Part shown: positions 2,994-19,383 of the stretch, piece after piece
Position numbering within the stretch: the stretch's first letter is position 1
Layout: each line of letters begins with the position of its first letter
IMG/VR virus record: IMGVR_UViG_3300033066_001253
Span: 13,223-77,222 of that record
DNA: 64,000 bases
Origin: a virus
Lineage: Duplodnaviria > Heunggongvirae > Uroviricota > Caudoviricetes
Direction: 5' to 3' (one strand)
The notes under the pieces: generated by a model
The model's database searches: none
What the model was told of the DNA's origin: nothing
Seen by the model: only the letters and a program-made list of their open reading frames with translations
Position numbers and translations under genes: made by a program

Positions 2994-4316
2994 TTGTCAT
3001 TTGATGTAAATCAACAAACAGGATTAACAGATTCTAGTGTTATGTTATTTCCGGCTGATGGGTATGGAGATACAGGATTAGTTAGATATTTAATTGAAGC
3101 TGAGAAACCTGATGCAATCATGTTAATAACAGATCCAAGGTATTTCCAATGGTTATTTAATATTGAAAATGAAATTCGTAAGAAAATTCCTATTACTTAT
3201 TTACAAATTTGGGATAGTCCATTTCCCTACCCTTTATGGAATAAACCATTCTATGAATCATGTGATTTATTAATGGCTATTTCAAAACAAACATTAAATA
3301 TTAATAAAGTTGTTTTAGGAGGAGTTCCATTTAGAGAGGTAGGAGATGTTTTAGGTCAACCAAATGAAGATCCAAATTCAAAACGTTCATCTCAAATTTT
3401 ATTAAAATACATCCCTCACGGTTTAAATGAAAATAATTATTTCCCAATAGATAAATCCTATCCAAAATATAAAGAATTTGAAAAATTTAAGAAGGAATTA
3501 TTCAAAGGTAAAGAATATGAGTTTGTTTTATTTTTCAATTCAAGAAACATAAGACGCAAACAAATTCCAGACACTATTCTTGCTTGGAGAATGTTTTTAG
3601 ACAGACTTCCAAAAGAAAAAGCAGATAAATGTTGTTTATTACTTCATACTGAATTAGTAAGTGAACATGGAACTGATTTACCAGCAGTATCAAATTATTT
3701 ATTAGATGAATATTCAGAAAGTATAATTTATCATCAACAAGGTTTAGGTGTTGAACAAATGAATTGGTTATATAATAGTTCAGATGCTCAAATATTGATT
3801 ACTGATAATGAGGGGTGGGGATTAAGTTTAACTGAAGCAATTTTAGCAGGAAGACCAATCATAGCAAATGTACAAGGTGGAATGCAAGATCAAATGAGAT
3901 TTGAAGATACAGAAGGTAATTGGATTGATTTTAATCAAGATTTTCCTTCAAATCATAGAGGTACATTTAAGAAATGTGGATCTTGGGCTTATCCAATATT
4001 TCCATCAAACATTTCTATTCAAGGTTCACCAATGACACCTTATATCAGTTCAGATAGAGTAAGACCTGAAGATGCATCTAATGCTATTATGAATTGTTAT
4101 AATGATGGTCCTGAAGTTAGAAAAATAACAGGTGAAGCAGGAAGAAGATGGGCTACAGGAGATGAAGCAGGATTTACTAGCAAACATCAAGCAGAACGAG
4201 TTATAGAAGCATTTGATGAATTATTCAAAACTTGGAAACCAAGAGAAAAATTTGAACTTATCAATGCTACAGAACATAAGTTAGATGTAACTAGAAAACA
4301 TAAATTAATTTATTAA
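2994..4316 (+). CDS. glycosyltransferase, GT4/GT1-like
   Basis: 440 aa. NEGWGLSLTEAILAGRPIIANVQGG matches the GT4 E(G)FG(L)..EA.a.G.PvIa...GG motif. Track start is TTG; first in-frame ATG is at 3042, so the start is uncertain. Confidence 0.55.
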   Translation: MSFDVNQQTGLTDSSVMLFPADGYGDTGLVRYLIEAEKPDAIMLITDPRYFQWLFNIENEIRKKIPITYLQIWDSPFPYPLWNKPFYESCDLLMAISKQTLNINKVVLGGVPFREVGDVLGQPNEDPNSKRSSQILLKYIPHGLNENNYFPIDKSYPKYKEFEKFKKELFKGKEYEFVLFFNSRNIRRKQIPDTILAWRMFLDRLPKEKADKCCLLLHTELVSEHGTDLPAVSNYLLDEYSESIIYHQQGLGVEQMNWLYNSSDAQILITDNEGWGLSLTEAILAGRPIIANVQGGMQDQMRFEDTEGNWIDFNQDFPSNHRGTFKKCGSWAYPIFPSNISIQGSPMTPYISSDRVRPEDASNAIMNCYNDGPEVRKITGEAGRRWATGDEAGFTSKHQAERVIEAFDELFKTWKPREKFELINATEHKLDVTRKHKLIY

Positions 4317-4317
4317 A

Positions 4318-4608
4318 ATGAACAAACTTCAAAACATAAAAACATTCTTTAAAGAATTTAAATATCTTAAAAAATATTTCTTTCAAGAATTAAATAAAAT
4401 GACCTCTGAAAGACTAATGGTTGAACATTTAGCAAAATATAGTGCTCCTTTAATTAAGGAACATGAATATGATCCTAAAAAATTAGAGAAATATGTTGAA
4501 ATGTGTGAAGGAAAATTTAAAGATAGAAAAATCCCCAACCAAAATTATCTAAAAAAGGAAATTGAAAAATTAGATAATAATATTAATAAATTAGTAAAGA
4601 TAAAATAA
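4318..4608 (+). CDS. hypothetical protein
   Basis: 96-aa ORF, K/E-rich. Confidence 0.35.
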   Translation: MNKLQNIKTFFKEFKYLKKYFFQELNKMTSERLMVEHLAKYSAPLIKEHEYDPKKLEKYVEMCEGKFKDRKIPNQNYLKKEIEKLDNNINKLVKIK

Positions 4609-4611
4609 AAT

Positions 4612-5943
4612 ATGAATAAACCGTTATGCGTACTTAGTTGTGCAATCAATACATACAGTGGTTATGGAGCTCGTGCAAGAGGAATTGCACAAGCAATTAT
4701 TGAATTAAAAAAAGATGAATGGGATATAAAAATCATCCCACAACGTTGGGGCGACACGAGCCAAGGATTTATTGAAGATAATCCTGAATGGTCATTTTTA
4801 AATGAGTATTTACATCTTCATCCACAACTCCCAAAACAACCAGAAATTTTTATTCAACATACTGTTCCTAATGAATTCCAACCTATTGGAAAATATAATA
4901 TAGGTATTACAGCAGGAATAGAATCTGACATTTCAATTCCAGAATGGATTGAAGGTTTAAATCGTATGAATACGACTTGGGTTTCATCTAAACATGCTAA
5001 AACAGTATTTGAAAATTCTAAATTTGAAAAAAAAGATCAACAAGGTAGAACTGTTGGAGTTGTTCAATTAGAAAAACCAATTGAAGTTATATTTGAGGGG
5101 GCTGATTTAAATACTTACAAAGTCTTAGAAAAAAACTTAGAAAATTCAATTAATAAATCTTTTGATTTATTCTCTATTAAAGAAGATTTCTGTTTCCTTT
5201 TCATAGGACATTGGATGCAAGGTGATATTGGAGAAGATAGAAAAAATGTAGGATTATTAGTTAAATCATTTTTCGAAACATTCAAAAATAAACAAAATAA
5301 ACCTGCACTAATCCTAAAATCATCAGGAGCTGTTTCAAGTTATATGGATCGTGATATGCTTTTAAAACGTATCGATCAAATTAAACAAACAGTGAATAGT
5401 AAAGATTTACCAAACATCTATTTATTACATGGTGATTTTACAGATAAAGAAATAAACGAACTGTATAATCATCCTAAAGTAAAAGCAATGGTTTCACTTA
5501 CAAAAGGTGAAGGATTTGGAAGACCATTACTAGAATTCAGCTTATTAAATAAACCAGTAATAGCAAGTAATTGGAGTGGTCATTTAGATTTCTTAGATTC
5601 AAAATACAGTGTATTAATAAATGGTGAATTAAAACAAGTCCATCCTAGTACAGCAAATCAATTCCTAATTAGAGAAAGTAAATGGTTTTCACCTCATTAC
5701 CATGAAATTGGAGAAACTTTAACTAATGTTTATAAACGTTATGATAAATATCTTCCAGATGCTCGTAAACAATCTGAAATTAATAGAGAGAAGTTTAGTT
5801 ATGAAGCTATGAAAAATTTAGTTAAAGAACATTTGGATAAAGTACCTACATTTGCTAGACAAGTAGAATTAAAATTACCAAATTTGAAAGCTCCTGCAGG
5901 TATGAAACAAATTCAATTACCAAAACTTACTAAAATACAATAA
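4612..5943 (+). CDS. glycosyltransferase, GT4-like
   Basis: 443 aa. TKGEGFGRPLLEFSLLNKPVIASNWSG matches the GT4 C-terminal EGFG...E....PVIAs motif. Similar size to the 2994 gene. Confidence 0.5.
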   Translation: MNKPLCVLSCAINTYSGYGARARGIAQAIIELKKDEWDIKIIPQRWGDTSQGFIEDNPEWSFLNEYLHLHPQLPKQPEIFIQHTVPNEFQPIGKYNIGITAGIESDISIPEWIEGLNRMNTTWVSSKHAKTVFENSKFEKKDQQGRTVGVVQLEKPIEVIFEGADLNTYKVLEKNLENSINKSFDLFSIKEDFCFLFIGHWMQGDIGEDRKNVGLLVKSFFETFKNKQNKPALILKSSGAVSSYMDRDMLLKRIDQIKQTVNSKDLPNIYLLHGDFTDKEINELYNHPKVKAMVSLTKGEGFGRPLLEFSLLNKPVIASNWSGHLDFLDSKYSVLINGELKQVHPSTANQFLIRESKWFSPHYHEIGETLTNVYKRYDKYLPDARKQSEINREKFSYEAMKNLVKEHLDKVPTFARQVELKLPNLKAPAGMKQIQLPKLTKIQ

Positions 5944-6516
5944 ATGAATTCACCTATAGATGTTTTATTTTATAAAAAAATAGAAGAAATAGAAAAACAA
6001 ATACCTAAACCTAAATCTAAACAATTAAATGAGTTAAGAGAATATGTTGAAAAAACTCGAGAATTAACTTTTGAACAAATTATAAAAGAATATAGTGATC
6101 CTAGTAAAAGTTATCCCATATTTGATACACCTAATTTAAAAGGAGATGCAATAGGATGGTCTTGTCAATTTGAAGATGATCCTAGATTTGATGCTACTGT
6201 AAAAACAATATCTGATGGAGTTTATCAGTTTGATTTTAATTTCTTTGGAAGTAAAGATTATAACCAAAATCTTACTAAAAAAATAAAAGGAACAGATTAT
6301 ATGAATACTTTACATAAAATAGTTAGAGATAAATTAATTCCTTTTATTGATAAAAAAGAAATAGGAGATACTTTATATTTTAATGTAAATAATAAAGATG
6401 GATTGGGTGAAGCTAGAAAAAAGGTATTCTCTTATTTAATTAATAAATATATTGATAAAAATAAATTTGATATAGAGAATGAAGATTATGATTTTAATAT
6501 AACTAAGATAAAATAA
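5944..6516 (+). CDS. hypothetical protein
   Basis: 190-aa ORF, start overlaps upstream stop (TAAATG). Confidence 0.35.
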   Translation: MNSPIDVLFYKKIEEIEKQIPKPKSKQLNELREYVEKTRELTFEQIIKEYSDPSKSYPIFDTPNLKGDAIGWSCQFEDDPRFDATVKTISDGVYQFDFNFFGSKDYNQNLTKKIKGTDYMNTLHKIVRDKLIPFIDKKEIGDTLYFNVNNKDGLGEARKKVFSYLINKYIDKNKFDIENEDYDFNITKIK

Positions 6517-6524
6517 CTTAAAAA

Positions 6525-6995
6525 ATGACTGATCAATTATCAAATTGCAATAGATGTGGAGGTAATGCTTGTTACGTAACAGAAGTAGCTCCTGGAATTA
6601 AAACATACCAATGTTTTGGATGTGGTTTTTGTGCTTCATCTCCAATGACTGAAGGTAGTGATTTTCTAAAAGAACAAATGGAAGTATTACCTGATCTTTA
6701 CAAATCATTAATGGTTGTAGACGAAGATGGATTAGTTTGGATGCCAACAAATATCAATCTCCCAGAAACAGGAATGATCTTCGCTAATGGTTCATCTTCA
6801 GACAATTGGAAATGGGCTGCTGTTAAAGCAGTTCGAGTTAAAGAAGAAGAAAAAGAGAAATTCAAGAAAAAAGATGGAACTTATTTTGAATGGAAAATGA
6901 ATATGGAGTCTATGAAAGAATTTGATGAGAAGGACTTTATGGAGGCAATGGATTACTTAGGCTTATTTAAAGAGGTCGTGGAATCTAAAAAATAA
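6525..6995 (+). CDS. zinc-ribbon containing hypothetical protein
   Basis: 156 aa. N-terminal CNRCGG ... CFGCGFC (two CxxC pairs). Confidence 0.35.
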   Translation: MTDQLSNCNRCGGNACYVTEVAPGIKTYQCFGCGFCASSPMTEGSDFLKEQMEVLPDLYKSLMVVDEDGLVWMPTNINLPETGMIFANGSSSDNWKWAAVKAVRVKEEEKEKFKKKDGTYFEWKMNMESMKEFDEKDFMEAMDYLGLFKEVVESKK

Positions 6996-7012
6996 TTTCT
7001 TATATTTAAAGT

Positions 7013-7426
7013 ATGAGAGAAATAAAATTTAGAGCGTGGGATTTATACAACAATAGAATGGTTGAAAATCCTTATATTTTTGAAAAAGCAACCAAGCATA
7101 ATAATAATGGTAATGACTTAAATCCTTCATTTATTTTTTATGAAGATTGGAGAGATATTGATGATGGTATTTCAAGACCTTGTCATATAATGCAATATAC
7201 TGGTTTAAAAGATTTGAAAGATATAGAAATTTATGAAGGAGATATTATAAAATCTAATTCAAAAACCAATTTTAAAGTTGTATTTGGAGATGGAAGTAAT
7301 AAATATGATTACATTAATGGATGGATTTTAATAGGAATTCAATCATCTATTCAATGGTTATTATCTGCTGAAGGTAAATATGAAATTATAGGAAATATTT
7401 ACCAAAACCCAGAATTAATAAATTAA
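7013..7426 (+). CDS. YopX family phage protein
   Basis: 137 aa. N-terminal MREIKFRAWD and C-terminal IGNIYQNPELI are the hallmark ends of the YopX domain. Confidence 0.7.
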   Translation: MREIKFRAWDLYNNRMVENPYIFEKATKHNNNGNDLNPSFIFYEDWRDIDDGISRPCHIMQYTGLKDLKDIEIYEGDIIKSNSKTNFKVVFGDGSNKYDYINGWILIGIQSSIQWLLSAEGKYEIIGNIYQNPELIN

Positions 7427-7531
7427 AAGTTATGGAAAATATATTAATAGTGAAAGAATTAATCAACCAAGGGCTACTTGTTGTAGAATCGTAATAACTA
7501 TAGGAGATAATTATTATTTAATAAATATAAA

Positions 7532-7702
7532 ATGAGAGAAAAAGGTTATTATTGGGTTCAATTTGAAGAAATAGGTAAATTTATCATTGCTGAATATTTA
7601 GGAACTGATTGGGGTTGGCAACTACATGGGGGAACTGAATATTATGAAGATAATGATTTTCATTTTATTGACAATGAAAGAATTTTATTTAAAAGTTTAT
7701 AA
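7532..7702 (+). CDS. hypothetical small protein
   Basis: 56-aa ORF, below the track threshold. It fills the gap between the 7013 and 7706 genes. Confidence 0.25.
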   Translation: MREKGYYWVQFEEIGKFIIAEYLGTDWGWQLHGGTEYYEDNDFHFIDNERILFKSL

Positions 7703-7705
7703 AAA

Positions 7706-8356
7706 ATGATTATAACATATGCTATAACAGCTAAAGATGAAGCATCAGAATTAGAACGTCTACTCTCCCATCTTAAAAAACATATCCGAGAAACAGATGA
7801 AGTTATAATTCAACTTGATATTAATCATACTCCAGAAGTTTTAGAAGTATGTAATTTATATACAGGATTTAACCATGAACAAGATTTACATAACACAATC
7901 AAAAATTCTCAATTTTATGTTTTTGCTTTAGATGGTAATTTTGCTCAATTTAAAAATCAATTAAGTAGATTTGCTTCTGGAGATTATATATTCCAAATTG
8001 ATGCTGATGAAATCCCCGAAACTATATTAATTCATAATCTTCCAGAATTATTAGAAAGTAATCCAACAGTTGATTTATTTTTAGTTCCTAGAATTAATAC
8101 TGTTGAGGGTTTAACTGAAGAACATATTAAAAAATGGGGATGGAAAGTAAATGAATATGGTTGGATTAATTTTCCAGATTATCAAACCCGCTTATACAAA
8201 AATTCCAAAGATATAAGATGGGAAGGTAAAGTTCATGAACGAATAGAAGGAGTTAAAACATTTGTAGCTTTACCTGAAAATAATGAATGGGTTCTTATTC
8301 ATGAAAAAGATATTAAACGTCAAGAGAAACAAAACAATTTTTATAATACATTATGA
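7706..8356 (+). CDS. putative GT-A fold glycosyltransferase
   Basis: 216 aa. N-terminal IITYAIT and an acidic DADE motif are weakly reminiscent of DxD glycosyltransferases, and the gene lies in a glycan cluster. Confidence 0.25.
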   Translation: MIITYAITAKDEASELERLLSHLKKHIRETDEVIIQLDINHTPEVLEVCNLYTGFNHEQDLHNTIKNSQFYVFALDGNFAQFKNQLSRFASGDYIFQIDADEIPETILIHNLPELLESNPTVDLFLVPRINTVEGLTEEHIKKWGWKVNEYGWINFPDYQTRLYKNSKDIRWEGKVHERIEGVKTFVALPENNEWVLIHEKDIKRQEKQNNFYNTL

Positions 8357-8763
8357 TAAACCCAAAAGACGTAAGAATAGGAAATTATATTGGATTTGGA
8401 AATTCAACTTGTAAAGTTTACGAAATAAATGAAAAATACTTTTATGTTCTTGATGAAGAAAATACAAGTTTAAAAAGTACATTTACTGATTTAAACCCAA
8501 TTCCTCTAACAGAATCAGAACTTGAAAAATTAGGAGTTATAAAACAATACCAAGAAAATCCATTTGAAGAAGGAAAATATAGTTTAAATGAAGATGGAAC
8601 TAAATATTATAGTTGGGTTAAAGGAGCATTTAATTTAGAAATAAATAAAGATAGTAAAATAATGTTTGAAGTTTATTCTCATTATATTCCAGTAGATTAT
8701 GTTCATCAATTCCAAAACCTATATTATTTATTAACTAACGAAGAATTAACATATATAAAATAA
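8353..8763 (+). CDS. hypothetical protein
   Basis: 136-aa ORF overlapping neighbours by 4 nt. Confidence 0.35.
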   Translation: MINPKDVRIGNYIGFGNSTCKVYEINEKYFYVLDEENTSLKSTFTDLNPIPLTESELEKLGVIKQYQENPFEEGKYSLNEDGTKYYSWVKGAFNLEINKDSKIMFEVYSHYIPVDYVHQFQNLYYLLTNEELTYIK

Positions 8764-9573
8764 ATGAAGATATTTGTAAAATTTTTTGATCCTAAAATAT
8801 TTGAAGATAAATTATCTCATTTGAAACATATTGATTTTTCATTATTTATTGATGATATTCCAAAAACACAAGATGATCTATCTTCAATTAATATAATAGT
8901 TCTACAGGAACCTAATGGTTATTTTGGTTTATCAGATTGGACTATTCAAAATAAAGACATATTCCAGGCAATATTAACTTGGGATGATAGAGTATTAAAT
9001 AATTGTGAACAAGCTATATTTTTACCATTTGGACATAGTTGGTTCAAACCAGACCAATACATAACTCCAAAACCTAAAAAATTTGAAATAGCTCATTTAT
9101 GTGGAGTTTTAAATAAAACATATGGTCATTCAATGAGACATGAAATAATGGCTCGTAAAAATGAATTTAAATGTCCTACTAATTTTCATCAAACAATAGG
9201 AGATAGACATAATTTAGATGATGCTCGATTAGGTAAAGAAACAGTGTTTGGGAATTCACAGTTTGGAATTTGCATTGAGAATTTTTCACATAGAGGTTAT
9301 TTTACTGAAAAAATATTAGATTGTTTTTTAATGCGGACTATTCCAATTTATTGGGGTTGTTCGAACATATATGATTTCTTTAATATAGACGGTGTAATAC
9401 GCGTAAATAATGTAGATGATATAATTTATTGGTCTGAAACATTGGAAGGTAATTATGAATTAAGAATAGAGGTAATTGAAGAAAATTATCAATTAGCTTT
9501 AAAATATATAGACTATGAACAAAATATAGTTAATAAGGTAGAAGAAATATTTAAATTAAATAATTTAATATAA
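8764..9573 (+). CDS. GT10-like glycosyltransferase (alpha-1,3-fucosyltransferase-like)
   Basis: 269 aa. FGICIENFSHRGYFTEKILDCFLMRTIPIYWGC closely matches the FucT (GT10) signature FENS..YvTEK....F...IPiywG. Confidence 0.6.
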   Translation: MKIFVKFFDPKIFEDKLSHLKHIDFSLFIDDIPKTQDDLSSINIIVLQEPNGYFGLSDWTIQNKDIFQAILTWDDRVLNNCEQAIFLPFGHSWFKPDQYITPKPKKFEIAHLCGVLNKTYGHSMRHEIMARKNEFKCPTNFHQTIGDRHNLDDARLGKETVFGNSQFGICIENFSHRGYFTEKILDCFLMRTIPIYWGCSNIYDFFNIDGVIRVNNVDDIIYWSETLEGNYELRIEVIEENYQLALKYIDYEQNIVNKVEEIFKLNNLI

Positions 9574-9574
9574 G

Positions 9575-10726
9575 ATGGAAATAAAAAGAAAAATATGGTA
9601 TGCTCCTAATAAGTTTGAATCTTATGGAGAGGAAGAAATTAAAGCTGTTGAAAGTTGTCTTCGTGATGGTTGGTTAGCAGGATTTGGTCCAAAAAGCATT
9701 GAGTTTGAAAAAAGAATTGCAAAAGTTTTTGGTAAAAAATATGGTGTATTTGTTAACTCGGGTTCATCAGCTAATTTATTAGCATTAGCTTGTTTAAAAT
9801 TACCCAAAGGAAGTGAAGTAATAACCCCAGCATGTACATTTAGTACAACATTATCTCCAATACTTCATTTAGGTTTAAAACCTGTTTTTGTTGATGTTAA
9901 ATTAGATGGATATGTTCCTTTTTTATTATCTATACTTGATAAAATTACTCCAATAACAAAGGCAATTATAATCCCAAATCTTATTGGGAATAAAATTGAT
10001 TGGGATTATTTAAAAGAATTATTATTTGATGAGGGAAGGGGAGATATTGTTTTAATTGAAGATTCTTGCGATACTATTTCTGAAACACTTGGAAGTGACA
10101 TTTCAACTACTTCATTTTATGCTTCTCATATTATAACAGCAGGAGGAGCTGGAGGTATGGTAATGTTTAATGATGAAAAATTAAGAGACATAGCATTACA
10201 ATTTAGAGATTGGGGTAGAATGGGAGATAATTCAGAAATAATGAGTGAGAGATTTAGTCATGAAGTAGATGGGATTCCTTATGATCATAAATTTTTATAT
10301 GATGTTTTAGGTTACAACTTTAAATGTAGTGAAATGAATGCTGCCTTTGGATTAGTACAATTGGAACGTTTTGAACAATTTAAACAAATAAGAAGACAAA
10401 ATATTGAAAGATATTTAGAAAATCTTAAAAATGTAAAAGAAATATTATTACCTGATGATAGTATTAAACCAAACTGGTTAGCAATCCCTTTACAAACAGA
10501 AAGAAGATTAGAATTATTAAAATTTTTAGAAGATAATAACATTCAAACTAGAGTTACATTTTCAGGTAATATTACAAGACATCCAATTTATAGAGAATAT
10601 TTACAAGAATTCAAAAATTCAGATATAATAATGGCTAATGGGTTTCTCTTAGGAGCTCATCATGGAATGACGGTAGAAGATGTAGATTATGTTTGTGATA
10701 AAATCAAAGAATTTTTTAACAAATGA
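9575..10726 (+). CDS. DegT/DnrJ/EryC1/StrS-family PLP/PMP enzyme with His in place of the active-site Lys (sugar 3-dehydratase-like)
   Basis: 383 aa. GVFVNSGSSANLLALA is typical of the family. The Schiff-base position reads SFYASHII (His) instead of SFxxxK, as in ColD/E1 3-dehydratases. Confidence 0.75.
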   Translation: MEIKRKIWYAPNKFESYGEEEIKAVESCLRDGWLAGFGPKSIEFEKRIAKVFGKKYGVFVNSGSSANLLALACLKLPKGSEVITPACTFSTTLSPILHLGLKPVFVDVKLDGYVPFLLSILDKITPITKAIIIPNLIGNKIDWDYLKELLFDEGRGDIVLIEDSCDTISETLGSDISTTSFYASHIITAGGAGGMVMFNDEKLRDIALQFRDWGRMGDNSEIMSERFSHEVDGIPYDHKFLYDVLGYNFKCSEMNAAFGLVQLERFEQFKQIRRQNIERYLENLKNVKEILLPDDSIKPNWLAIPLQTERRLELLKFLEDNNIQTRVTFSGNITRHPIYREYLQEFKNSDIIMANGFLLGAHHGMTVEDVDYVCDKIKEFFNK

Positions 10727-11676
10727 TTAAAGTAGTATATATAACAGGTTGTTTAGGATTTATAGGATCTTATATTACAAGAACTTGTCTTGAAAAAGGT
10801 TGGTATGTTAAAGGTGTAGATAAAATTACATATGCTGCTAATAAAGATTTATTAGATGAATTTAAAAAATATCCTAATTTTTCATTTGTTCACTGTGATA
10901 TAAATGATTTAAAATTTTTATATGATTGTGACTATGTGATTAATGCTGCTGCCGAAACTCATGTTGGGAACTCAATAGCAAGTAGTGTTGAATTTATTAA
11001 ATCAAATATTGATGGTGTTCATAATTTACTAGAATTAATAAAAAATCATAGAGGGGAAAATATTAAAAAACCAACATTAATTCATTTCAGTACTGATGAA
11101 GTTTATGGAGATATAGACAAAGGAGCTCATACTGAAATAGATTTGTTAAAACCAAGCAACCCATATTCAGCAACAAAAGCAGCAGCAGACATGTTAATAA
11201 TGGCTTGGGGTCGAACACATAAAATACCTTATATCATTGTTAGACCAACCAACAATTATGGAGTAGGCCAATATGTGGAAAAACTTATTCCTAAAACATG
11301 TAAATACCTTAAATTAGGAAAGAAAATACCTTTACATAATAACGGATCTCCTATTCGAAATTGGTTACATGCTCAAGATACAACTGATGCTATTATAGCA
11401 ATTATAAAATCAGAAGTTGAAAATGAAATTTTTAATATTTGTGGAAGTTTTGAACAAAGTAATTTGGATACTGTAAAGAAAATTCTTATATTTAATAATC
11501 TAGATTTAGAAGATATAAATAAATATATTGATTGGTCATGTGATAGACCTGGACAAGATGTTAGGTATTCCTTAGATGATTCTAAATTAAGAAATTTGGG
11601 TTGGAAACCTAAAAAACAATTTGATAAAGAATTACAATCAATAATAAATTATTATAAAAATAAATTTATATGGTAA
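10723..11676 (+). CDS. NDP-hexose 4,6-dehydratase (RmlB-like SDR)
   Basis: 317 aa. TGCLGFIGS Rossmann motif, HFSTDEVYG and YSATKAA (YxxxK) match dTDP/CDP-glucose 4,6-dehydratases. Confidence 0.75.
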   Translation: MIKVVYITGCLGFIGSYITRTCLEKGWYVKGVDKITYAANKDLLDEFKKYPNFSFVHCDINDLKFLYDCDYVINAAAETHVGNSIASSVEFIKSNIDGVHNLLELIKNHRGENIKKPTLIHFSTDEVYGDIDKGAHTEIDLLKPSNPYSATKAAADMLIMAWGRTHKIPYIIVRPTNNYGVGQYVEKLIPKTCKYLKLGKKIPLHNNGSPIRNWLHAQDTTDAIIAIIKSEVENEIFNICGSFEQSNLDTVKKILIFNNLDLEDINKYIDWSCDRPGQDVRYSLDDSKLRNLGWKPKKQFDKELQSIINYYKNKFIW

Positions 11677-13457
11677 AGAAAAAAGCATTAGAATTTATTG
11701 TAGATTGTTTAATCCATAATGATATAAATACATTTTTTTTAGTTACGGGTGGTGCTATTGTTCCTACAATTGATTATATAGGAACCAATACTAATGCTAG
11801 ATATTATTGTTTCCAACATGAACAATCAGCAGCAATGGCTGCTGAATCATATTATAGAATAACAGGAAAATTAGGAGTAGTATTAAGCACTAGTGGTCCC
11901 GGTGCTCAAAATTTATTAAATGGAATATGTGGTTGTTGGTATGACTCAATCCCATGTTTATTTATCACTGGTCAAGTTAGTACTTATGAATCTATAAATT
12001 CAATAAAATCTAATCCTCGACAATTAGGTTTTCAAGAAATGCCCGTAGTTGAATCATTTAAACCTTTTACTAAATATATCAAACAAATAAATATTAATAC
12101 AATTAAAGATGATATCTATCAAGCTATTACATCTGCTTTAGAAGGACGCCCAGGACCTAGTTTATTAGATTTTCCAGTAGATGTTCAATTATCTGAAGTT
12201 GAGGATGATTTATTTAAAATTAAAAAACCTAAATTATCTATAAATAATAACATAATATATTCTATAGATTTACTAAAAAATAAACTTTCTAATTCAAAAA
12301 GACCATTATTGTTATTAGGACATGGTATTAGATTATCGGATGCTGTAAATGAAATTAAAGAATTAATCAATAAATTAAACATACCTTTTGTTGTATCTTG
12401 GGGAGGTTTTGATTTAATTGAACATTCTCATTCTAATTTTATAGGTACTATAGGAGTATATGGTAGTAGAGGTGGTAACTTCGCAATTCAAAATTGTGAC
12501 TTATTAATTTCAATAGGATCAAGATTAGACACTAGACAAACAGGAGGAGATTTAAAAACATTCTCTCGTAATTCTTATAAAGTAATGGTAGATATTGATT
12601 TAAATGAAATCAATAAAGGAAGAGGATTAAATATTGATCTACCTATTAATTGTGATGCCAAAATTTTTATTAATTCATGTTTAAATATTTTAGAACCTAT
12701 TAATATTGAAAAAGATTGGAAAAAACAATGTTTAGATTGGAGTAACCTTAATTTAGATAAACGAGAACCTAAAGAAAATTTATTAACATCTTATGAATTT
12801 TTAGAAGAATTAAATCATCACCTTGATGATGATTCTATAATAATCCCAGATGAAGGAGGACATTTGGTTTGGTCAATGCAATCATTAAAAACCAAACCAA
12901 ACCAAAGAATATTTTCTAATTTTGGTAACTCATCAATGGGATATAGTCTTCCAGCATCTATAGGGGCATCTATTGCTACCAACAAACAAGTAATTTGTAT
13001 AGATGGAGATGGTGGATTTCAAATGAATATTCAAGAATTACAAACTGTAAAACATTATAATTTACCTATTAAAATATTTATAATGAATAATAATTGTTAT
13101 GGTATTATTAAACAATTCCAAGATACATATTTTGATTCTAGATATATTGCTACTGAAGAACAAGATTATTCTGTTCCTAATTTTATTAAAATAGCAGAGG
13201 CTTATGGTATAAAATCAATAGAAGCTAATAAAAATAATTATAAGGAAGTTATTAATTTGGCTCTCAAAGAAAAAGATAGTATATTGGTGAATGTAATTAT
13301 AGATAAAGAACAAAAATTGATACCTAAATTAGAATTTGGAAATCCTTTGGAAGATATGTTTCCATATTTAGATGATGATTTAATAAAAGAAAACATGATT
13401 ATACCAATGATACCGAGAAAAGATAATACTCAAGGATGGGTAACTTTAAATAAATAA
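11670..13457 (+). CDS. thiamine-diphosphate-dependent enzyme, acetolactate-synthase-like (YerE-like C-C branching candidate)
   Basis: 595 aa. N-terminal TGGAIVPTIDY ... FQHEQSAAMAAESYYRITGK ... STSGPGAQNL is the ThDP pyrimidine-binding domain. IDGDGGFQMNIQEL ... MNNNCYG is the GDG-x24-NN ThDP motif. Confidence 0.85.
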   Translation: MVKKKALEFIVDCLIHNDINTFFLVTGGAIVPTIDYIGTNTNARYYCFQHEQSAAMAAESYYRITGKLGVVLSTSGPGAQNLLNGICGCWYDSIPCLFITGQVSTYESINSIKSNPRQLGFQEMPVVESFKPFTKYIKQININTIKDDIYQAITSALEGRPGPSLLDFPVDVQLSEVEDDLFKIKKPKLSINNNIIYSIDLLKNKLSNSKRPLLLLGHGIRLSDAVNEIKELINKLNIPFVVSWGGFDLIEHSHSNFIGTIGVYGSRGGNFAIQNCDLLISIGSRLDTRQTGGDLKTFSRNSYKVMVDIDLNEINKGRGLNIDLPINCDAKIFINSCLNILEPINIEKDWKKQCLDWSNLNLDKREPKENLLTSYEFLEELNHHLDDDSIIIPDEGGHLVWSMQSLKTKPNQRIFSNFGNSSMGYSLPASIGASIATNKQVICIDGDGGFQMNIQELQTVKHYNLPIKIFIMNNNCYGIIKQFQDTYFDSRYIATEEQDYSVPNFIKIAEAYGIKSIEANKNNYKEVINLALKEKDSILVNVIIDKEQKLIPKLEFGNPLEDMFPYLDDDLIKENMIIPMIPRKDNTQGWVTLNK

Positions 13458-13480
13458 ACAAATATCAAATTTTTTAAAAT

Positions 13481-14404
13481 ATGGCAGCAGATAGTAAAAC
13501 TAAAAAAACTATTTTAACATTAACAGGGAATAAAATAAAAAAAGAAAAAACAGTATTAGTTACTGCTTATGACTACCCCCAAGCAATTTTAGCAGACAGA
13601 GCAGGGGTAGATTGCATTTTGGTTGGTGATTCCTTAGGAATGACTCAACTAGGATATAAAACAACAATTCCTGTTACAATGGAAGATATGATTAGAAGTT
13701 GTGAAGCAGTTAGTAGAGGTTCCCAAAATGCTTTTTTGATTGGAGATATGCCTTATATGTCTTATCAACAATCAGATGAATTAGCTATTGAAAATGCAGG
13801 TAGATTTATAAGAGCAGGAATGGATATGGTAAAAGTAGAAGGAGCTATGGTTGAGCGTGTAAGAGCAATATCTAAAGCTGGGATTATGGTTATGAGTCAT
13901 TTAGGACTAACCCCTCATACCAGAGCAAAATTAGGTGGTTATAAAGTTCAAGGAAAAACAGCAGATCAAGCGGATATTATTTTACAACAAGCCTTAACCT
14001 TACAAGAAGCAGGTTGTTCAGCTTTATTATTAGAAGCTATGCCTAAAGAACCTGCAGAAATGATTGCTAAAAAATTATCCATTCCTGTTTATGGGATTGG
14101 TGGTGGAGATGGAGTTGATGGACAATTAGTAATATTTCATGATTTAACAGGTTTATTTTGGGAATTTAAATCTAAATTTGTTAAACGTTATTGTGAAGCT
14201 GGGAAGATTATTCAAGATGCTTTAGAACAATATGTTAATGAGGTTAAATCAGGAATATTTCCTTCCCCGGATAATTTTTATGAAATTAAAGAAGATGAAT
14301 TAGAAAAATTGTTGGGTGATGATAAATGGAAATATGAAAAAGATAGAGTAGAAAATAATACTACTCCCAATCATAGTGTTACACCAATTACTATTAATAA
14401 ATAA
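13481..14404 (+). CDS. PanB-like 3-methyl-2-oxobutanoate hydroxymethyltransferase family protein
   Basis: 307 aa. VTAYDYPQAILADRAGVDCILVGDSLGMTQLGY is near-identical to the PanB/KPHMT signature. It is not in a pantothenate context here. Confidence 0.7.
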   Translation: MAADSKTKKTILTLTGNKIKKEKTVLVTAYDYPQAILADRAGVDCILVGDSLGMTQLGYKTTIPVTMEDMIRSCEAVSRGSQNAFLIGDMPYMSYQQSDELAIENAGRFIRAGMDMVKVEGAMVERVRAISKAGIMVMSHLGLTPHTRAKLGGYKVQGKTADQADIILQQALTLQEAGCSALLLEAMPKEPAEMIAKKLSIPVYGIGGGDGVDGQLVIFHDLTGLFWEFKSKFVKRYCEAGKIIQDALEQYVNEVKSGIFPSPDNFYEIKEDELEKLLGDDKWKYEKDRVENNTTPNHSVTPITINK

Positions 14405-15207
14405 TGGATATTCTGATTACTGGAGGTAATGGTTATATTGCTAAAAGCATTTATAATAATTTTAGTAATAAATATAATATAACTAGAATTACCCGAAATG
14501 ATTTTGATTTATCTGATAAAAAAAGTACTGATAAATGGTTTAAGGGAAAATATTTTGATTTTGTAATCCATACTGCTATAAAGGGAGGAAGTAGATTAAA
14601 AGAAGATCCTTTAGATATAACTCATCAAAACGTTTCAATGTTTTATAATTTATTAAATAATAAAAACTGTTTTGGAAATTTAATAAATATAGGATCAGGA
14701 ATAGAAGATTCAAAACTTAATTCCCCCTATGTTTTAAGCAAAAAAATTATTAGTGATTTGATAAAACAATTACCTAATTTTTACAATATTAGAGTATTTG
14801 GTGTATTTGATGAAAATGAATTAAAAACTAGATTTATTAAAAATAATATTTTTAATTATATAAATCACCAACCACTAGAAATTTACCAAAACATAAAAAT
14901 GGATTTATTTTACATGAAAGATTTTATTAAAATCATATCTTATTATCTAGAATCAAATTATAATTTCGATCCACCTCAAAAACAATTAAATTGTTCTTAT
15001 CATAATAAATCAACTTTATTAGACACAGCAAAATTAATAAATAATTTAGGAACTCATAAATGTAATATAAAAATTCATAATCCTCAATATGGAGATGATT
15101 ATATAGGAATATGTAATACTCCTAAAATAGATAATGGGGATTTCATAATAGAATATTTAGGATTAGAATATGGGATTAAAGAAACATATGATATTTTAAA
15201 AAAATGA
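14404..15207 (+). CDS. NAD(P)-dependent sugar-nucleotide reductase/epimerase, RmlD-like
   Basis: 267 aa. N-terminal ILITGGNGYIA Rossmann motif; short SDR of the dTDP-4-dehydrorhamnose reductase type. Confidence 0.5.
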   Translation: MDILITGGNGYIAKSIYNNFSNKYNITRITRNDFDLSDKKSTDKWFKGKYFDFVIHTAIKGGSRLKEDPLDITHQNVSMFYNLLNNKNCFGNLINIGSGIEDSKLNSPYVLSKKIISDLIKQLPNFYNIRVFGVFDENELKTRFIKNNIFNYINHQPLEIYQNIKMDLFYMKDFIKIISYYLESNYNFDPPQKQLNCSYHNKSTLLDTAKLINNLGTHKCNIKIHNPQYGDDYIGICNTPKIDNGDFIIEYLGLEYGIKETYDILKK

Positions 15208-16148
15208 ATATTAAATTGATGTTACATATAATGCCTTGGGAAATAGATCAAGCATTGATGGTTGTTGACAAATTAAAAAAATCCACATATTATTTAGAAA
15301 ATGAAAATAAAATATTTATTAATACTGTTTTAAATTTATCCGATTCAATTATAGATTGGAATAAATCTAACATTCCAAAAGAATTTTTTATAAAAAAATA
15401 TAAAATAATATGTAATTTATTATCTTCTTATTATATTCATACTTCTCTCATATATGAAGGAGATAAAACATATGGTCATTTAGATTTACAAAAAACCTCA
15501 ATTTCAAAAGAAATAGATTATTATATTTACATATGTGCTGATATAGATTTTTCAGAACATTTATTATTCTATTTAATAGAATCAGCGAAACAAATCCATA
15601 ATGAATATTTTATCTTAACCCCTCAAATATTTAAAAGTTGGGATTCAAGTTGGGATATTTTAGTTAATGATAAATTCAAAAATATCCCTTATGAAAAATG
15701 TATTGATATAGATATTCATGAAATTAGATATCAATGTTTAGATTTAGATAATCCTAATGTTAAATCTATAGACCAATTTAAATTTGCTGGTTGGTTTGAT
15801 TTATATAATAAAAATTTTTATGAAAAATTAGTTCCTGTATTAGATGAATGGAATGGATATGGACCTTGGGATTTATATTCAATGAATATTTGTAATATAG
15901 CTAAACAATATGGAGTTGATGTGCAACAATATATTTTAGAAAATCAAATAACATGGTTTTCAGATGTAGGATGCCTTAGAAACTTTGAAGAATATGGGGG
16001 AGATGGACAGTTAAAAACATTATATAAAAATTTCCTAAATTTAAAACTTGGAAGACAAGAACAAAGATCTTATATTGATAAAAATTTAAATAAATATTTG
16101 AACCAATGGTTTGAATATGCTAAACAAAACCAAATAATAAATGTATAG
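15204..16148 (+). CDS. hypothetical protein in glycan cluster
   Basis: 314-aa ORF, no recognised motif. Embedded in the sugar operon. Confidence 0.4.
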
Positions 16149-16764
16149 CGAACCTGAAAAAAATGATCATCCTGATAGAATCAGAAAAGTTGGTAAATAT
16201 ACTTATGGTATAAATAATATTTGTATATATTATTGGGCTAATGGAAATTGGACAAAAGACGGAACAAAACTCCCAGAACCTGCATATCTTGAAATAGGAA
16301 ATTATTGTTCAATTTCAGGACATATTTTAATATACATGGGGGGTAATCACCATTATGAATGGGCATCTCAATATCCTTTTGGACATATTCACCAAAATGT
16401 TTTTAATAAATTTAATGGAGAAGGTCAACCATGGTCTAAAGGAAATGTGATTATAGGAAATGATGTTTGGATAGGAACATGTGCTACTATCCATAGTGGA
16501 GTAACAATTGGGGATGGAGCAGTAATAGCTTCTAATGCTGTAATAACAAAAGATGTAGAACCTTATTCTATAGTAGGAGGAAACCCTGCTAAATTTATTA
16601 AATATAGATTCCCAAAAGAAATTAGAGATAAATTATTAGAGTATAAATGGTGGGATTTGGATGATTATATTATAGATCATATTTCTCCACTATTATGTTC
16701 TGGTGATTTTGAAAATTTATTTAGAGTATTAGATGAAATTAAACAACAATTAAAAAACAATTAA
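16141..16764 (+). CDS. hexapeptide-repeat (left-handed beta-helix) acetyltransferase
   Basis: 207 aa. [46 protein letters not shown] shows canonical [LIV]G hexapeptide repeats of sugar/xenobiotic O-acetyltransferases. Confidence 0.8.
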
Positions 16765-16766
16765 AA

Positions 16767-17465
16767 ATGAAAACAATTACTACATATGAAGAGTTAATTG
16801 ATGATCTCTACAGTAATAATGTGACAATGGTTCACCCATCATTTATAAACTCAATACTAAACTTCTACCCAAACATATCCAAAGTAGAAGGAGATATTTT
16901 AGAATGTGGAGTCTGGAAAGGAGGAGTTTCAATATTCCTTAGTCATTTATTTAATGATAGAAATATTTGGGTGAGTGATTCATATCAAGGATTCCAACCT
17001 TTATCTCATGCTACTTATGAATATGATAAAGAAAGACATACTCCTGAATATACTCATTGTGCTAATGGTCCTATAGGAATTAGTTTAGAAGAAGTTAAAG
17101 CTAATTTTGAAAAATACGGTTTAGGAAATGAAGAAAGAATTAAGTTTTTAAAAGGATTTGTTAAAGATACTTTACCTACTTCAGGGATTGAAAAATTAGC
17201 TTTATTAAGAATTGATGTTGATGCCTATTCTGCTACTTTAGAAGTACTAAATGAAATGTATGATAAAGTTCAACCTGGAGGATATATTATTTTTGATGAC
17301 TCATGTCTATATGAGGTAATTGATGCTCTTAAAGTATTTTTTAAGCAAAAGAATTTAGAGGAATATATTTTTCACCCTCTCACAAATGAAAAATTAAATC
17401 TACATCTTAAGTATACTAACGATGACTCAGGATTTCCAACTGGGTGTTATATAATTAAACAATAA
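16767..17465 (+). CDS. TylF/MycF-family SAM-dependent O-methyltransferase
   Basis: 232 aa. GDILECGVWKGGVSIFL and RIDVDAYSATLEVL ... GGYIIFDD match the macrocin-O-methyltransferase fold. Confidence 0.65.
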   Translation: MKTITTYEELIDDLYSNNVTMVHPSFINSILNFYPNISKVEGDILECGVWKGGVSIFLSHLFNDRNIWVSDSYQGFQPLSHATYEYDKERHTPEYTHCANGPIGISLEEVKANFEKYGLGNEERIKFLKGFVKDTLPTSGIEKLALLRIDVDAYSATLEVLNEMYDKVQPGGYIIFDDSCLYEVIDALKVFFKQKNLEEYIFHPLTNEKLNLHLKYTNDDSGFPTGCYIIKQ

Positions 17466-18163
17466 TGAAACTTATCTACAGAATCTCAGACGCAGGTTAT
17501 AATAAAATAAAACCTAACTATATAAATAATGAAAATTGTTTAAGAAACGCTATAAAAATATTTCCGTGGTTAGAATATGATTGGTCTATCATAGCTGATA
17601 ATATATCTGAAGAAACAAGTAATATGATTCAAAAATATATTCCTAGAGATCATATTAATTATGTTTCTGTAGGACATGGAGCTGGTACATTTAATTTAGC
17701 TTTAGATGAAGCATTACAAAGTCCTGATGATGAAATAATTTATTTTTTAGAGAACGATTATTTACATAAACCAAACTCTGATAAAATATTACAAGAAGGA
17801 TTTGATCTAGGAGCATCTTTTGTGTCATTATATGATTGCCCAGATAAGTATTTAGATCCATCTGATGGAGGAAACCCATATTGTGAAGGTGGGGCTGAAG
17901 ATACTAGAGTATATTTAACTGATTCTTGTCATTGGAAAATAACAAATAGTACAACAATGACCTTTGCTTCTAAAGTGTCAACTTTAAAACAAACTGAGTC
18001 TATTCTTAGAAAATGGACTAATATGGGGCCTTATCCACAAGATTTTAAAATGTTTCTTGAATTAAGAGATAATAATAAATTATTAATTACACCAATGCCT
18101 GGGTATTCAACTCATGGAGAAACAGCTTGGTTATCACCTTTAACAAATTGGAGTGAAATATGA
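17465..18163 (+). CDS. hypothetical protein in glycan cluster
   Basis: 232-aa ORF, ATG overlaps upstream stop. Confidence 0.4.
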   Translation: MKLIYRISDAGYNKIKPNYINNENCLRNAIKIFPWLEYDWSIIADNISEETSNMIQKYIPRDHINYVSVGHGAGTFNLALDEALQSPDDEIIYFLENDYLHKPNSDKILQEGFDLGASFVSLYDCPDKYLDPSDGGNPYCEGGAEDTRVYLTDSCHWKITNSTTMTFASKVSTLKQTESILRKWTNMGPYPQDFKMFLELRDNNKLLITPMPGYSTHGETAWLSPLTNWSEI

Positions 18164-19383
18164 AAAAATATATACCTATAACCCAATGTCCTATTACAGG
18201 ACATGATGAGCAAATCAAATATTTTGATTTAGGAAATATTCCTTTAGTGAATAATCTATGTAATACTAGAGAAGAAGCACTTAATGCTGAAAAATTTCCT
18301 CTAAACATTAACTATTATCCCTCATCAGGAGAATCCTCATTAAGTATAGCAATTGATGGAGAACTTTTATTCTCACATTATCTATTTAAATCTGAAGTAA
18401 ATAAGCCATATTATGGACATTGCCAGGAAATGTTTAGATATGCTCAGGAATATGTTAAAGTAAAGGATGGAACAAAAATTGTTGATATTGGAGGAAATGA
18501 TGGTTCATTACTTGATGCTTTTAGAAGTATTAGTAATAAAAAACTAGAATTATTAAATATTGATCCATCCCAAAATTTAGCTAAACTAAATACTGAAAAA
18601 AATATACCATTTTTAACTAAATTTTTCTCATATGATATAGCTAAAACCTTAAATAAAACAGATATAATTACTTCTACAAATGTATTTCAACATTTATTTG
18701 ATATAAATTCATTTGTTAAAGGAATTGAATGTTTATTAAATGAAAATGGTATTTGGGTTTTGGAATTTCCATATTGGATTAATAGTATGGAAACTAATCA
18801 ATTTGATCAAATATATCATGAACATGTTTTTTATCATTCTGTTACACCTATGAAAATGATGATGGAAAAACATAATATGAAAATCATTAATATAACTGAA
18901 CAAAACATTCATGGAGGGACTTTACGACTTATAATTACTAAAAAGGATTCTATACTTACTCCTGACAACACGATTGATGAATATTTAGAATATGAAAAGA
19001 AATATGATTTAGAATATCACACTAAATGGGGTAAAGAAGTCCAAAATCATATCATTAATTCAAAAGAATTTATTAACAAATTAAAAAAAGAAGGTAAAAC
19101 AATTTTTGGTTTTGGTGCCGCTGCTAAAGGATGTATTTACATGAATGCAATGGATTTAACTCATCAAGATATTGATTGTGTAATTGATGATACTGATATT
19201 AAACAAAATAAATATATTCCTGGGGTTGGAATACAGATTGTAAATCGTGATATTTTAAAAACAACCCAACCAGATTATATTTTAATCTTAGCTCATAATT
19301 TTAAAGATTACATAATTGAATCATTAAAAAATGAATATAAGGGGAAATTTATTATATTAATACCTACTCCTCAAATACTCTAA
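18160..19383 (+). CDS. NDP-hexose C-methyltransferase-like SAM-dependent methyltransferase
   Basis: 407 aa. N-terminal C..TGH ... DLGNIPLVNNL and central VDIGGNDGSLL (SAM motif I), with size and layout like TylC3/TcaB9 sugar C3-methyltransferases. Confidence 0.5.
   Translation: MKKYIPITQCPITGHDEQIKYFDLGNIPLVNNLCNTREEALNAEKFPLNINYYPSSGESSLSIAIDGELLFSHYLFKSEVNKPYYGHCQEMFRYAQEYVKVKDGTKIVDIGGNDGSLLDAFRSISNKKLELLNIDPSQNLAKLNTEKNIPFLTKFFSYDIAKTLNKTDIITSTNVFQHLFDINSFVKGIECLLNENGIWVLEFPYWINSMETNQFDQIYHEHVFYHSVTPMKMMMEKHNMKIINITEQNIHGGTLRLIITKKDSILTPDNTIDEYLEYEKKYDLEYHTKWGKEVQNHIINSKEFINKLKKEGKTIFGFGAAAKGCIYMNAMDLTHQDIDCVIDDTDIKQNKYIPGVGIQIVNRDILKTTQPDYILILAHNFKDYIIESLKNEYKGKFIILIPTPQIL

Follow-up and report, generated by a model that had tools for sequence, protein, structure and literature searches.

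A viral gene island with a predicted pathway to acyl-branched 3,6-dideoxyhexoses in which PanB may form the branch donor

Predicted pathway and its bacterial counterparts

The stretch of viral DNA analysed here (the window, 64,000 nucleotides; IMG/VR record IMGVR_UViG_3300033066_001253, positions 13,223 to 77,222) carries a sugar gene island in which the gene for an enzyme dependent on thiamine diphosphate (ThDP) lies next to a panB gene. The families and motifs of the encoded proteins make it probable that the island specifies an acyl-branched 3,6-dideoxyhexose pathway of the YerE/ErwE type, with PanB replacing the aldolase of the known clusters. Gene families, catalytic motifs, conservation and co-variation were observed directly, and from these we infer substrates, step order, product and acceptor. 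As a whole, the island is best read as a locus for sugar decoration in an aquatic myovirus resembling Immutovirus, with a source contig of about 148 kb.

Three parts can be distinguished in the island (Table 1; genes are named by their first position in the window). A conserved scaffold of two GT4-like glycosyltransferases (GTs), a small protein (6525) and one GT-A enzyme is common to the window and Flavobacterium phage immuto. The predicted sugar core consists of a 4,6-dehydratase of the deoxythymidine diphosphate (dTDP) type, a His-variant 3-dehydratase, a YerE-like ThDP carboligase, PanB and a short-chain dehydrogenase/reductase (SDR). Lineage-specific genes with predicted tailoring functions (acetyltransferase, O-methyltransferase, 3-C-methyltransferase and further GTs) form the third part. 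All open reading frames (ORFs) listed in an earlier sequence-only reading of this DNA are present on the plus strand, which carries nearly all ORFs of the window; their coordinates were correct, and profile or fold searches confirmed their families. Between 8353 and 19383 the genes are packed with start/stop overlaps or abutments of 1-8 nt, an arrangement that points to a single operon with translational coupling.

In the proposed pathway the 4,6-dehydratase 10723 would turn nucleoside diphosphate (NDP)-glucose of the host, most likely dTDP-glucose, into the 4-keto-6-deoxy sugar, and the His-variant enzyme 9575, which would work with pyridoxal phosphate or pyridoxamine phosphate (PLP/PMP), would strip the 3-hydroxyl group to leave the 4-keto-3,6-dideoxy sugar. 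In parallel, PanB (13481) would use methylene-tetrahydrofolate to hydroxymethylate an alpha-keto acid. The resulting gamma-hydroxy-alpha-keto acid would be ketopantoate if the substrate is alpha-ketoisovalerate and 4-hydroxy-2-oxobutanoate if it is pyruvate. The ThDP enzyme 11670 is proposed to decarboxylate this donor and to attach the resulting acyl carbanion at the C-4 position of the keto-sugar, after which the side-chain carbonyl would be reduced by the SDR 14404 and the product passed to an acceptor by the GT-A enzymes 7706 and 15204. The scaffold GTs 2994, 4612 and 17465 would build the underlying glycan, while the cassette of the window would add O-acetyl, O-methyl and 3-C-methyl groups, which may be carried by another sugar made from this 4-keto intermediate.

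Acyl-branched pathways are known in bacteria. Steitz et al. (2022) showed a scheme shared by erwiniose, caryophyllose and related sugars: an aldolase encoded in the cluster provides a gamma-hydroxy-alpha-keto acid, which a YerE-like ThDP enzyme then links to an NDP-4-keto-3,6-dideoxyhexose, and a reductase completes the branch; ErwE refuses pyruvate and takes 4-hydroxy-2-oxoacids (PMC9306805). The bacterial systems comprise yersiniose (YerE/YerF), erwiniose (ErwI/J/E/F), caryophyllose (MMAR_2331/2332) and 'gastriose' (MygI/E/F) (PMC9306805). As predicted, the pathway of the island would match these step for step: a 4,6-dehydratase and a His-type 3-dehydratase would lead to NDP-4-keto-3,6-dideoxyhexose, and a ThDP carboligase resembling acetolactate synthase (ALS) for the C-4 ketone, a putative donor-making enzyme encoded in the cluster, a candidate NAD(P)H reductase and a dedicated GT would complete the set. 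The family assignments thus support the yersiniose-type logic that had been recognized earlier in the combination of 4,6-dehydratase, His-DegT, ThDP enzyme and reductase. The proposed donor enzyme differs: in the island it is the folate-dependent PanB with a phosphoenolpyruvate mutase/isocitrate lyase fold, whereas the known systems use a pyruvate aldolase of the BphI or HpcH/citrate lyase type, neither of which is present here. In addition, the dehydratase is of the dTDP type and not of the cytidine diphosphate (CDP) type of the known systems (Yersinia), the 3-dehydratase lacks the Cys-rich insertion of E1, and the carrier is a virus.

Thus, this kind of pathway is known in bacteria, but the PanB-coupled version, the viral occurrence and the predicted branch are not in the searchable literature, which also yielded nothing relevant that connects viruses or O-antigen clusters with yersiniose, YerE or PanB. 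To our knowledge, the predicted branch (C3, or C5 with a gem-dimethyl group) matches no sugar described so far.

The two dehydratases

The protein encoded by 10723 scores 302 bits with the dTDP-type model and 77 bits with the CDP-type model, besides Pfam matches to GDP_Man_Dehyd (5e-56) and Epimerase. A CDP/Eod-type dehydratase, as assumed in the sequence-only reading, is therefore not supported.

The best structural match of 9575 in the PDB is E1 of Yersinia (3bcx, 2e-61), followed by ColD (1.5e-41). Its residue His185 aligns with His220 of E1 and replaces the Schiff-base Lys, a position fixed by comparison with the H220K mutant (3bb8), so that the earlier notion of a His at the PLP site proved correct. 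A His occupies this position in 73 of 75 DegT homologues adjoining a ThDP gene. While 9575 is like ColD and E1 (RfbH, DdhC) in its DegT fold and in the His at the Lys position, it differs from E1 (RfbH) in a score of 277 bits, below the RfbH equivalog cutoff of 423, and in the lack of the Cys-rich insertion RDCYCAPGCDNTC of E1: the aligned segment is deleted and contains no Cys. We take this insertion to be the Fe-S region of E1. According to these differences, 9575 is a His-type 3-dehydratase with a ColD-like cofactor logic; of the former label "E1/ColD-like" the His variant stands and the E1 part does not. Some related phage islands have a true RfbH/E1-type enzyme (475 bits, above the cutoff of 423) in place of the 9575 type.

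The ThDP enzyme is YerE-like

ALS large subunits are the top NCBIfam families for 11670, but the protein stays under every ALS equivalog cutoff (TIGR00118: 388 bits against 538; the other ALS models are far below theirs). Its best PDB matches are 5ahk (317 bits) and 8rph (314 bits), compared to about 227 bits for genuine acetohydroxyacid synthase (AHAS). The identity of 8rph as JanthE, a YerE-like carboligase accepting ketones, was confirmed, and its CDG motif is visible in the alignment. The Trp residue responsible for acceptor specificity in AHAS ('QWED' motif of plant AHAS) is a Phe in both 11670 and 5ahk. No small-subunit partner was found for 11670, whose neighbours are the 4,6-dehydratase and PanB genes, and ACT-domain, IlvN, IlvC, IlvD or other ilv genes were absent among the island ORFs scanned. 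Scores below the ALS cutoffs, the better match to YerE-like structures and the missing IlvN all bear out the earlier suspicion that 11670 is not an ordinary IlvB.

A gene of the 11670 type occurs together with His-DegT in 69 of 76 viral loci. The closest bacterial match to the ThDP protein is 44% identical. Bacterial relatives with 30-43% identity (66 loci) have a DegT gene within 10 kb in 46 cases and a dehydratase-like SDR in 31, and none is flanked by ilv genes; by this DegT/SDR neighbourhood they belong to YerE-like sugar clusters.

PanB and its possible coupling to the ThDP enzyme

The protein 13481 exceeds both NCBIfam cutoffs for PanB (281 against 207.6 and 313 against 272), and the catalytic and Mg2+ motifs GDSLGM, D..P, VKxEG, HLGLTP and LLLE are kept in comparison with the ketopantoate hydroxymethyltransferase of E. 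coli (1m3u). Since the products of PanB are 4-hydroxy-2-oxoacids by definition and PanB stands at the place of the aldolase, it is read as the donor-forming enzyme. A second C1 branch put on the sugar by PanB, as suggested by the sequence-only reading, is most likely not made: the motifs for the alpha-keto acid and Mg2+ are intact and fit the slot of the donor aldolase. PanC, PanD and PanE were found neither in the island nor in the checked Pfam tables and annotated ORFs of its relatives.

In 56 viral loci panB lies directly beside the ThDP gene, and so it does in a single bacterial cluster that has the complete logic. In a tree of the ThDP proteins PanB is present throughout the two groups of viral loci described below (A and B) and missing just in a few subclades and outgroups. 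Presence of PanB is accompanied by a change within the ThDP enzyme itself. Residue 421 (Ser421 in 'GN-S-SMG', window positions 12930-12932) aligns to a Gly of the AHAS motif 'GLGAMG', two residues before the conserved Met, in a region which presumably contacts the cofactor. It is a Ser in 51 of 51 viral loci with PanB and in the sole bacterial locus with PanB, an Ala in 13 of the 15 viral loci of the same clade without PanB, and either Gly or Ala in the majority of the remaining homologues from bacteria. This covariation is suggestive of a functional coupling between PanB and the ThDP enzyme, not proof of it, because the sequences are related by kinship. Residue 405 of the ThDP enzyme also changes, from Ser to Cys or Thr.

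It is also conceivable, though rather unlikely, that 11670 uses pyruvate like YerE to form a two-carbon, yersiniose-like branch and that PanB adds a separate hydroxymethyl group to the sugar or to the acetyl side chain. Pyruvate is the donor in the YerE precedent (PMC9306805), the loci having the ThDP gene but no panB show that the ligase can work alone, and the alpha-hydroxy-ketone made by YerE could in principle chelate Mg2+ in the way an alpha-keto acid does. However, PanB keeps all residues that bind and enolise an alpha-keto acid and passes its equivalog cutoff, the aldolase precedes the ThDP step in the single tested system, where ErwE does not accept pyruvate (PMC9306805), and the Ser/Ala switch at residue 421 follows PanB, as expected for a change of donor.

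Several points weigh against the pathway with a PanB-made donor. Active-site remodelling is not visible in PanB, which may have a plain pantothenate role. The ThDP enzyme is retained in about 13 prasinovirus-like loci without PanB, so PanB is not obligatory, and two loci (L022 and L056) have Ser421 but no PanB in the stored stretch. The quaternary beta-carbon makes ketopantoate a sterically demanding donor for a ThDP enzyme. The SDR 14404, which carries the cofactor and YxxxK motifs (TGGNGYIA and YVLSK) and whose position is occupied by an SDR in most related loci, resembles characterised reductases weakly. The structure 5ahk is presumably YerE of Pseudomonas protegens (PpYerE); a literature search did not confirm this. 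Finally, no nucleotidyltransferase homologue was detected with queries from related islands in the 64 kb of the window, which covers less than half of the source contig of about 148 kb. The sequence-only reading had likewise noted the lack of a nucleotidyltransferase, a flippase and a polymerase; nucleotidyltransferases do occur in related islands, so that this part of the earlier observation does not extend to them.

Relatives in phages and prasinoviruses

The ThDP protein of the window, which sits on a JGI contig of 147,923 bp, has metagenomic relatives with at least 63% identity that form more than 120 clusters, on contigs of up to 204 kb. In IMG/VR 76 loci with a ThDP relative were found, and the core recurs in about 70 viral contigs. 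Comparison by tblastn and clustering divided the loci into two groups. Group A comprises window-like phages with all genes on one strand and the order nuclease, GT4, GT4, small protein, GT-A, (GT10-like), DegT, dehydratase, ThDP enzyme, PanB, SDR and GT-A (15204-like). Group B comprises about 50 loci, in which identity to the window is 45-50% for the ThDP enzyme, 64% for DegT and 48-57% for PanB; they are flanked by genes for PhoH, asparagine synthase, GT34, FkbM, DUF5773 and DUF5904.

By exact look-up, one locus of group B (L025) is Ostreococcus lucimarinus virus 2 (OlV2), with adjacent genes for the ThDP enzyme (YP_009172526) and PanB (YP_009172525). OlV5, OlV6, OlV7 and OtV-2 belong to the same protein clusters, and group B therefore represents prasinoviruses. 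The prasinovirus genes are homologous to those of the window and similarly arranged (GT-A, PanB, ThDP enzyme, SDR, His-DegT, 4,6-dehydratase); here too the dehydratase is of the dTDP type and PanB is above the cutoff. The loci differ from the island in the eukaryotic algal host, in having genes on both strands, and in their flanks with eukaryote-type GT34 and FkbM methyltransferase genes.

In papers on prasinoviruses the ThDP gene is read as a function in branched-chain amino-acid synthesis and PanB as one in pantothenate synthesis (PMC5371798, PMC5454428, PMC6851583). The 'amino-acid and vitamin' genes of OlV2, OlV5, OlV6, OlV7 and OtV-2 comprise an ALS, an aminotransferase and a ketopantoate hydroxymethyltransferase. 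Applied to the island, such a reading would make 11670 an ALS boosting valine, leucine and isoleucine and 13481 a PanB boosting pantothenate and coenzyme A, with the sugar neighbourhood being incidental. Apart from these published annotations, it can draw on the ALS families at the top of the NCBIfam matches and on the PanB scores above the cutoffs. Nevertheless, we consider it improbable: the island contains no IlvN, IlvC, IlvD, PanC or PanE, the ALS score is 150 bits short of its cutoff while the YerE-like structures lie about 90 bits above AHAS, the specificity Trp of AHAS is replaced, and 11670 is translationally coupled between the 4,6-dehydratase and PanB and accompanied by His-DegT in nearly all loci.

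The sequence-only reading had called a pathway of this complexity undescribed on a phage. This was overstated, as many contigs of uncultured viruses carry the core, cultured prasinoviruses have it too, with its genes annotated as ALS and PanB, and the scaffold exists in a cultured Flavobacterium phage. With considerable doubt, we put forward the idea that phages and green-algal viruses have an unrecognised pathway in common, which would yield sugars of a new class for the decoration of their own virions. These sugars would be 3,6-dideoxyhexoses with a PanB-derived branch at C-4; 4-C-(1,3-dihydroxy-2,2-dimethylpropyl) is proposed as an example of the branch.

If the PanB-coupled pathway is correct, it would predict a type of sugar branch not reported so far and a new use of PanB, a folate-dependent C1 aldol reaction feeding a ThDP carboligase, which would be of interest for glycobiology and for the biocatalysis of tertiary alcohols. 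If phages and algal viruses do share it, the auxiliary genes of prasinoviruses and aquatic viromes that have been reported as 'acetolactate synthase' and 'ketopantoate hydroxymethyltransferase' would be misread genes of glycan synthesis. The view that algal viruses boost amino-acid and vitamin synthesis of their hosts, for which viral ALS and PanB genes are cited, would change. The occurrence of the module in phages as well as in eukaryotic algal viruses, and within a hypervariable cassette flanked by conserved GTs, would point to glycans made by viruses as a widespread and diversifying feature in aquatic habitats. Cultured systems in which this can be tested directly are available, namely OlV2, OlV5, OlV6, OlV7 and OtV-2 with PanB, prasinovirus relatives without PanB, and immuto for the scaffold.

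Some related phage islands (L079 at 8840-10017, also L003 and L016) carry a split E1_dh/Transket_pyr pair, a second ThDP enzyme, directly upstream of the ALS-like ThDP gene, and a Micromonas virus was reported to have 'transketolase N-terminal/B subunit' genes (PMC5454428). In the Micromonas viruses MpV1 and MpV-PL1 an acetaldehyde dehydrogenase, an ALS and an aminotransferase are reported (PMC5454428). This set recalls ErwJ and ErwE of the erwiniose cluster, so that these viruses may have a different donor route. A GT34 gene (GMA12/MNN10 family) adjoins the core in most prasinovirus loci and in the phage-like loci L009, L012, L013 and L074. This family is typical of eukaryotes, and its presence in both types of loci suggests exchange between viruses of different domains. 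With queries from related islands no second ThDP enzyme of the E1_dh/transketolase type, GT34 or FkbM was found in the window.

Searches of GenBank phages by tblastn with the ThDP enzyme, PanB and DegT gave weak matches (46% identity or less), mostly to host DNA or to unrelated cyanophage DegT, and a near-identity DNA search of the same phages gave zero matches. The panB gene of 'Microcystis phage MaAM05' was rejected as a precedent, as it adjoins panC and sufBCDS and looks bacterial; the end of this record (L001, MW495066.1 251360-273876) holds panB, panC, sufBCDS, iscU and guaD.

Synteny with phage immuto and the variable cassette

Among cultured phages, Flavobacterium phage vB_FspM_immuto (Immutovirus, 160 kb) is the nearest; it shows the same order of genes at 39-52% identity: a PD-(D/E)XK nuclease (42%), two GTs of about 440-480 amino acids (52% and 50%), a 150-amino-acid protein (43%), a GT2 (44%), a cassette, a DksA-like protein and an HNH endonuclease. 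In contrast to the island, the immuto cassette contains WecE-type aminotransferases, a PglB-like acetyltransferase, an epimerase and other GTs, and lacks the ThDP enzyme, PanB and the 3-dehydratase. At this place L156, a metagenomic relative of 168 kb, carries a cassette of still another kind together with a copy of 17465. In L152, the closest relative, the acetyltransferase, the C-methyltransferase and the far GT2 are retained, and further relatives have nucleotidyltransferase-HAD fusions, GT61 and a split E1-type ThDP enzyme in addition. The lineage is mosaic: PanB is 96% identical to that of two relatives whose DegT proteins are 77% and 34% identical. The locus thus combines a scaffold of conserved glycosyltransferases with a sugar cassette that is hypervariable. 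If virions are decorated in the way suggested above, it would be a serotype-like cassette for virion glycans. In immuto, genes for DpdA, QueF (7-deazaguanine DNA modification) and GroEL/ES lie upstream of the glycosylation locus (L157, 85-3011); the counterpart of this region in the genome of the window falls outside the 64 kb.

That the island is a bacterial O-antigen or capsule fragment, either on a cellular contig or recently captured by a phage and non-functional in infection, is very improbable: its gene families are typical for bacterial polysaccharide clusters and one Deltaproteobacteria metagenome-assembled genome follows the same logic with a full set (nucleotidyltransferase, dehydratase, E1-type DegT, two GT2, ThDP enzyme, PanB, SDR), but the G+C content (about 26% in the window) is uniform over island and flanks (0.24-0.29), the flanks hold phage genes (nuclease, HNH, YopX, RNA ligase and PHROG matches), gene order is shared with immuto, ThDP relatives far closer than the best bacterial match lie on large contigs, and Wzx, Wzy, an initiating transferase or a membrane protein are missing from the island. 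The earlier view that the block is not a recent capture from a host is upheld by the same uniform G+C, phage flanks, immuto synteny and many viral relatives.

Acceptor of the sugar

As acceptor we favour a soluble target in the cytoplasm, for instance a structural protein of the virion, since no membrane component is encoded: a transmembrane-like segment was found in 0 of 30 ORFs between 96 and 25140. The core common to bacterial and algal viruses and the variability of the cassette were also weighed toward a soluble acceptor. The lack of a membrane protein makes a modification of the host O-antigen less likely. DNA glycosylation was considered as a further purpose of the island and may still apply; the scanned ORFs showed no hydroxymethylase or other base-modification gene.

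Glycosyltransferases and tailoring genes

Table 1 Predicted functions and positions of island genes in the window
Predicted function	Position	Strand	Basis
GT4-like glycosyltransferase, scaffold member 1	2994..4316	+	Pfam Glycos_transf_1, 27.0 bits (cutoff 26.4)
GT4-like glycosyltransferase, scaffold member 2	4612..5943	+	Pfam Glycos_transf_1, 26.4 bits (equal to cutoff)
Conserved small scaffold protein, function not assigned	6525..6995	+	No Pfam match
GT-A (GT2-like) glycosyltransferase	7706..8356	+	Pfam Glycos_transf_2, 4.5e-06; DAD motif
GT10-like (fucosyltransferase-type) candidate	8764..9573	+	Pfam Glyco_transf_10, 24.1 bits (cutoff 23.9)
Predicted PLP/PMP-dependent NDP-4-keto-6-deoxyhexose 3-dehydratase	9575..10726	+	DegT, 1.8e-74
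NDP-glucose 4,6-dehydratase, dTDP-glucose type	10723..11676	+	TIGR01181, 302 bits
YerE-like ThDP-dependent carboligase (predicted)	11670..13457	+	Three ThDP domains
PanB-type alpha-keto-acid hydroxymethyltransferase	13481..14404	+	Pfam, 7.3e-97
Short SDR, proposed side-chain ketoreductase (YerF/ErwF role)	14404..15207	+	Pfam Epimerase, 1.6e-12
GT-A-fold glycosyltransferase candidate	15204..16148	+	Profile or fold searches
Hexapeptide-repeat O-acetyltransferase, CatB/Vat class	16141..16764	+	Pfam Hexapep; NCBIfam CatB, 3.6e-41
TylF-like sugar O-methyltransferase	16767..17465	+	Pfam TylF, 7.3e-43
GT-A-fold glycosyltransferase candidate, highly conserved across islands	17465..18163	+	Profile or fold searches
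NDP-hexose 3-C-methyltransferase (TylC3/TcaB9/KijD1 class)	18160..19383	+	Methyltransf_14, 3.2e-34
GT2 glycosyltransferase, far end of cassette	22444..23214	+	Pfam Glycos_transf_2, 3.7e-17

Within the scaffold, 2994, which is conserved in the group A loci, corresponds to the glycosyltransferase immuto35A_89 (52% identity), 4612 to immuto35A_90 (annotated as RfaG-like, 50%) and 6525, found in 11 related loci, to immuto35A_91 (43%). The counterpart of 7706 is immuto35A_92 (44%); homologues of 7706 were found in 50 loci, and it is the single GT which accompanies the core in both phages and prasinoviruses. Homologues of 8764 are present in 8 related loci, the copy of the closest relative L152 being 91% identical. 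Of the three proteins that the sequence-only reading had left as unknowns, 15204 and 17465 are now candidates for GT-A-fold glycosyltransferases, whereas 5944 stays without a family assignment and is specific to the window.

The protein 17465 (232 amino acids) belongs to a family of 4027 proteins, of which the best 120 clusters are all at least 75% identical, and is far better conserved than the products of the neighbouring genes. Its copy in the different sugar island of L156 (10001-10699) shows 79% identity, the counterpart in L152 just 38%.

Among the tailoring enzymes, the acetyltransferase 16141 is 93% identical to its homologue in L152 and 58% to that in L079, and the GT2 22444 80% and 62%, respectively. 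No homologue of the TylF-like protein 16767 was present in any fetched related locus. The C-methyltransferase 18160 is similar over its full length to 4rv9 in the PDB (8e-54), to TcaB9 (2.6e-34) and to KijD1, and 81% identical to the copy in L152. While this confirms the family on which the earlier proposal of further C-branching was based, the gene belongs, together with those of the O-methyltransferase and the acetyltransferase, to the variable cassette of the nearest relatives only.

Other features of the window

Promoter and terminator scans of the window gave counts no higher than the shuffled expectation and were uninformative. The nuclease gene and that of the first GT are separated by an HNH/treble-clef homing endonuclease gene (1852-2793; PHROG 559, 2.9e-71), which is missing from this position in all related loci. 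A YopX-family gene (7013-7426, 5.4e-22) is located inside the GT scaffold and is not found in related islands; the 280-nt gap at its 3' side is the largest of the island. Downstream of the island a lone tRNA-Met (CAT) gene is present at 26419-26494. Further on, genes for an RNA ligase (28978-30177), an SPFH/Band-7 protein (PHROG 200; 31613-32404) and a DUF7275/DUF7277 protein (40020-40787) were identified, the last of which is common to Streptomyces, Gordonia and Vibrio phages at about 35% identity.

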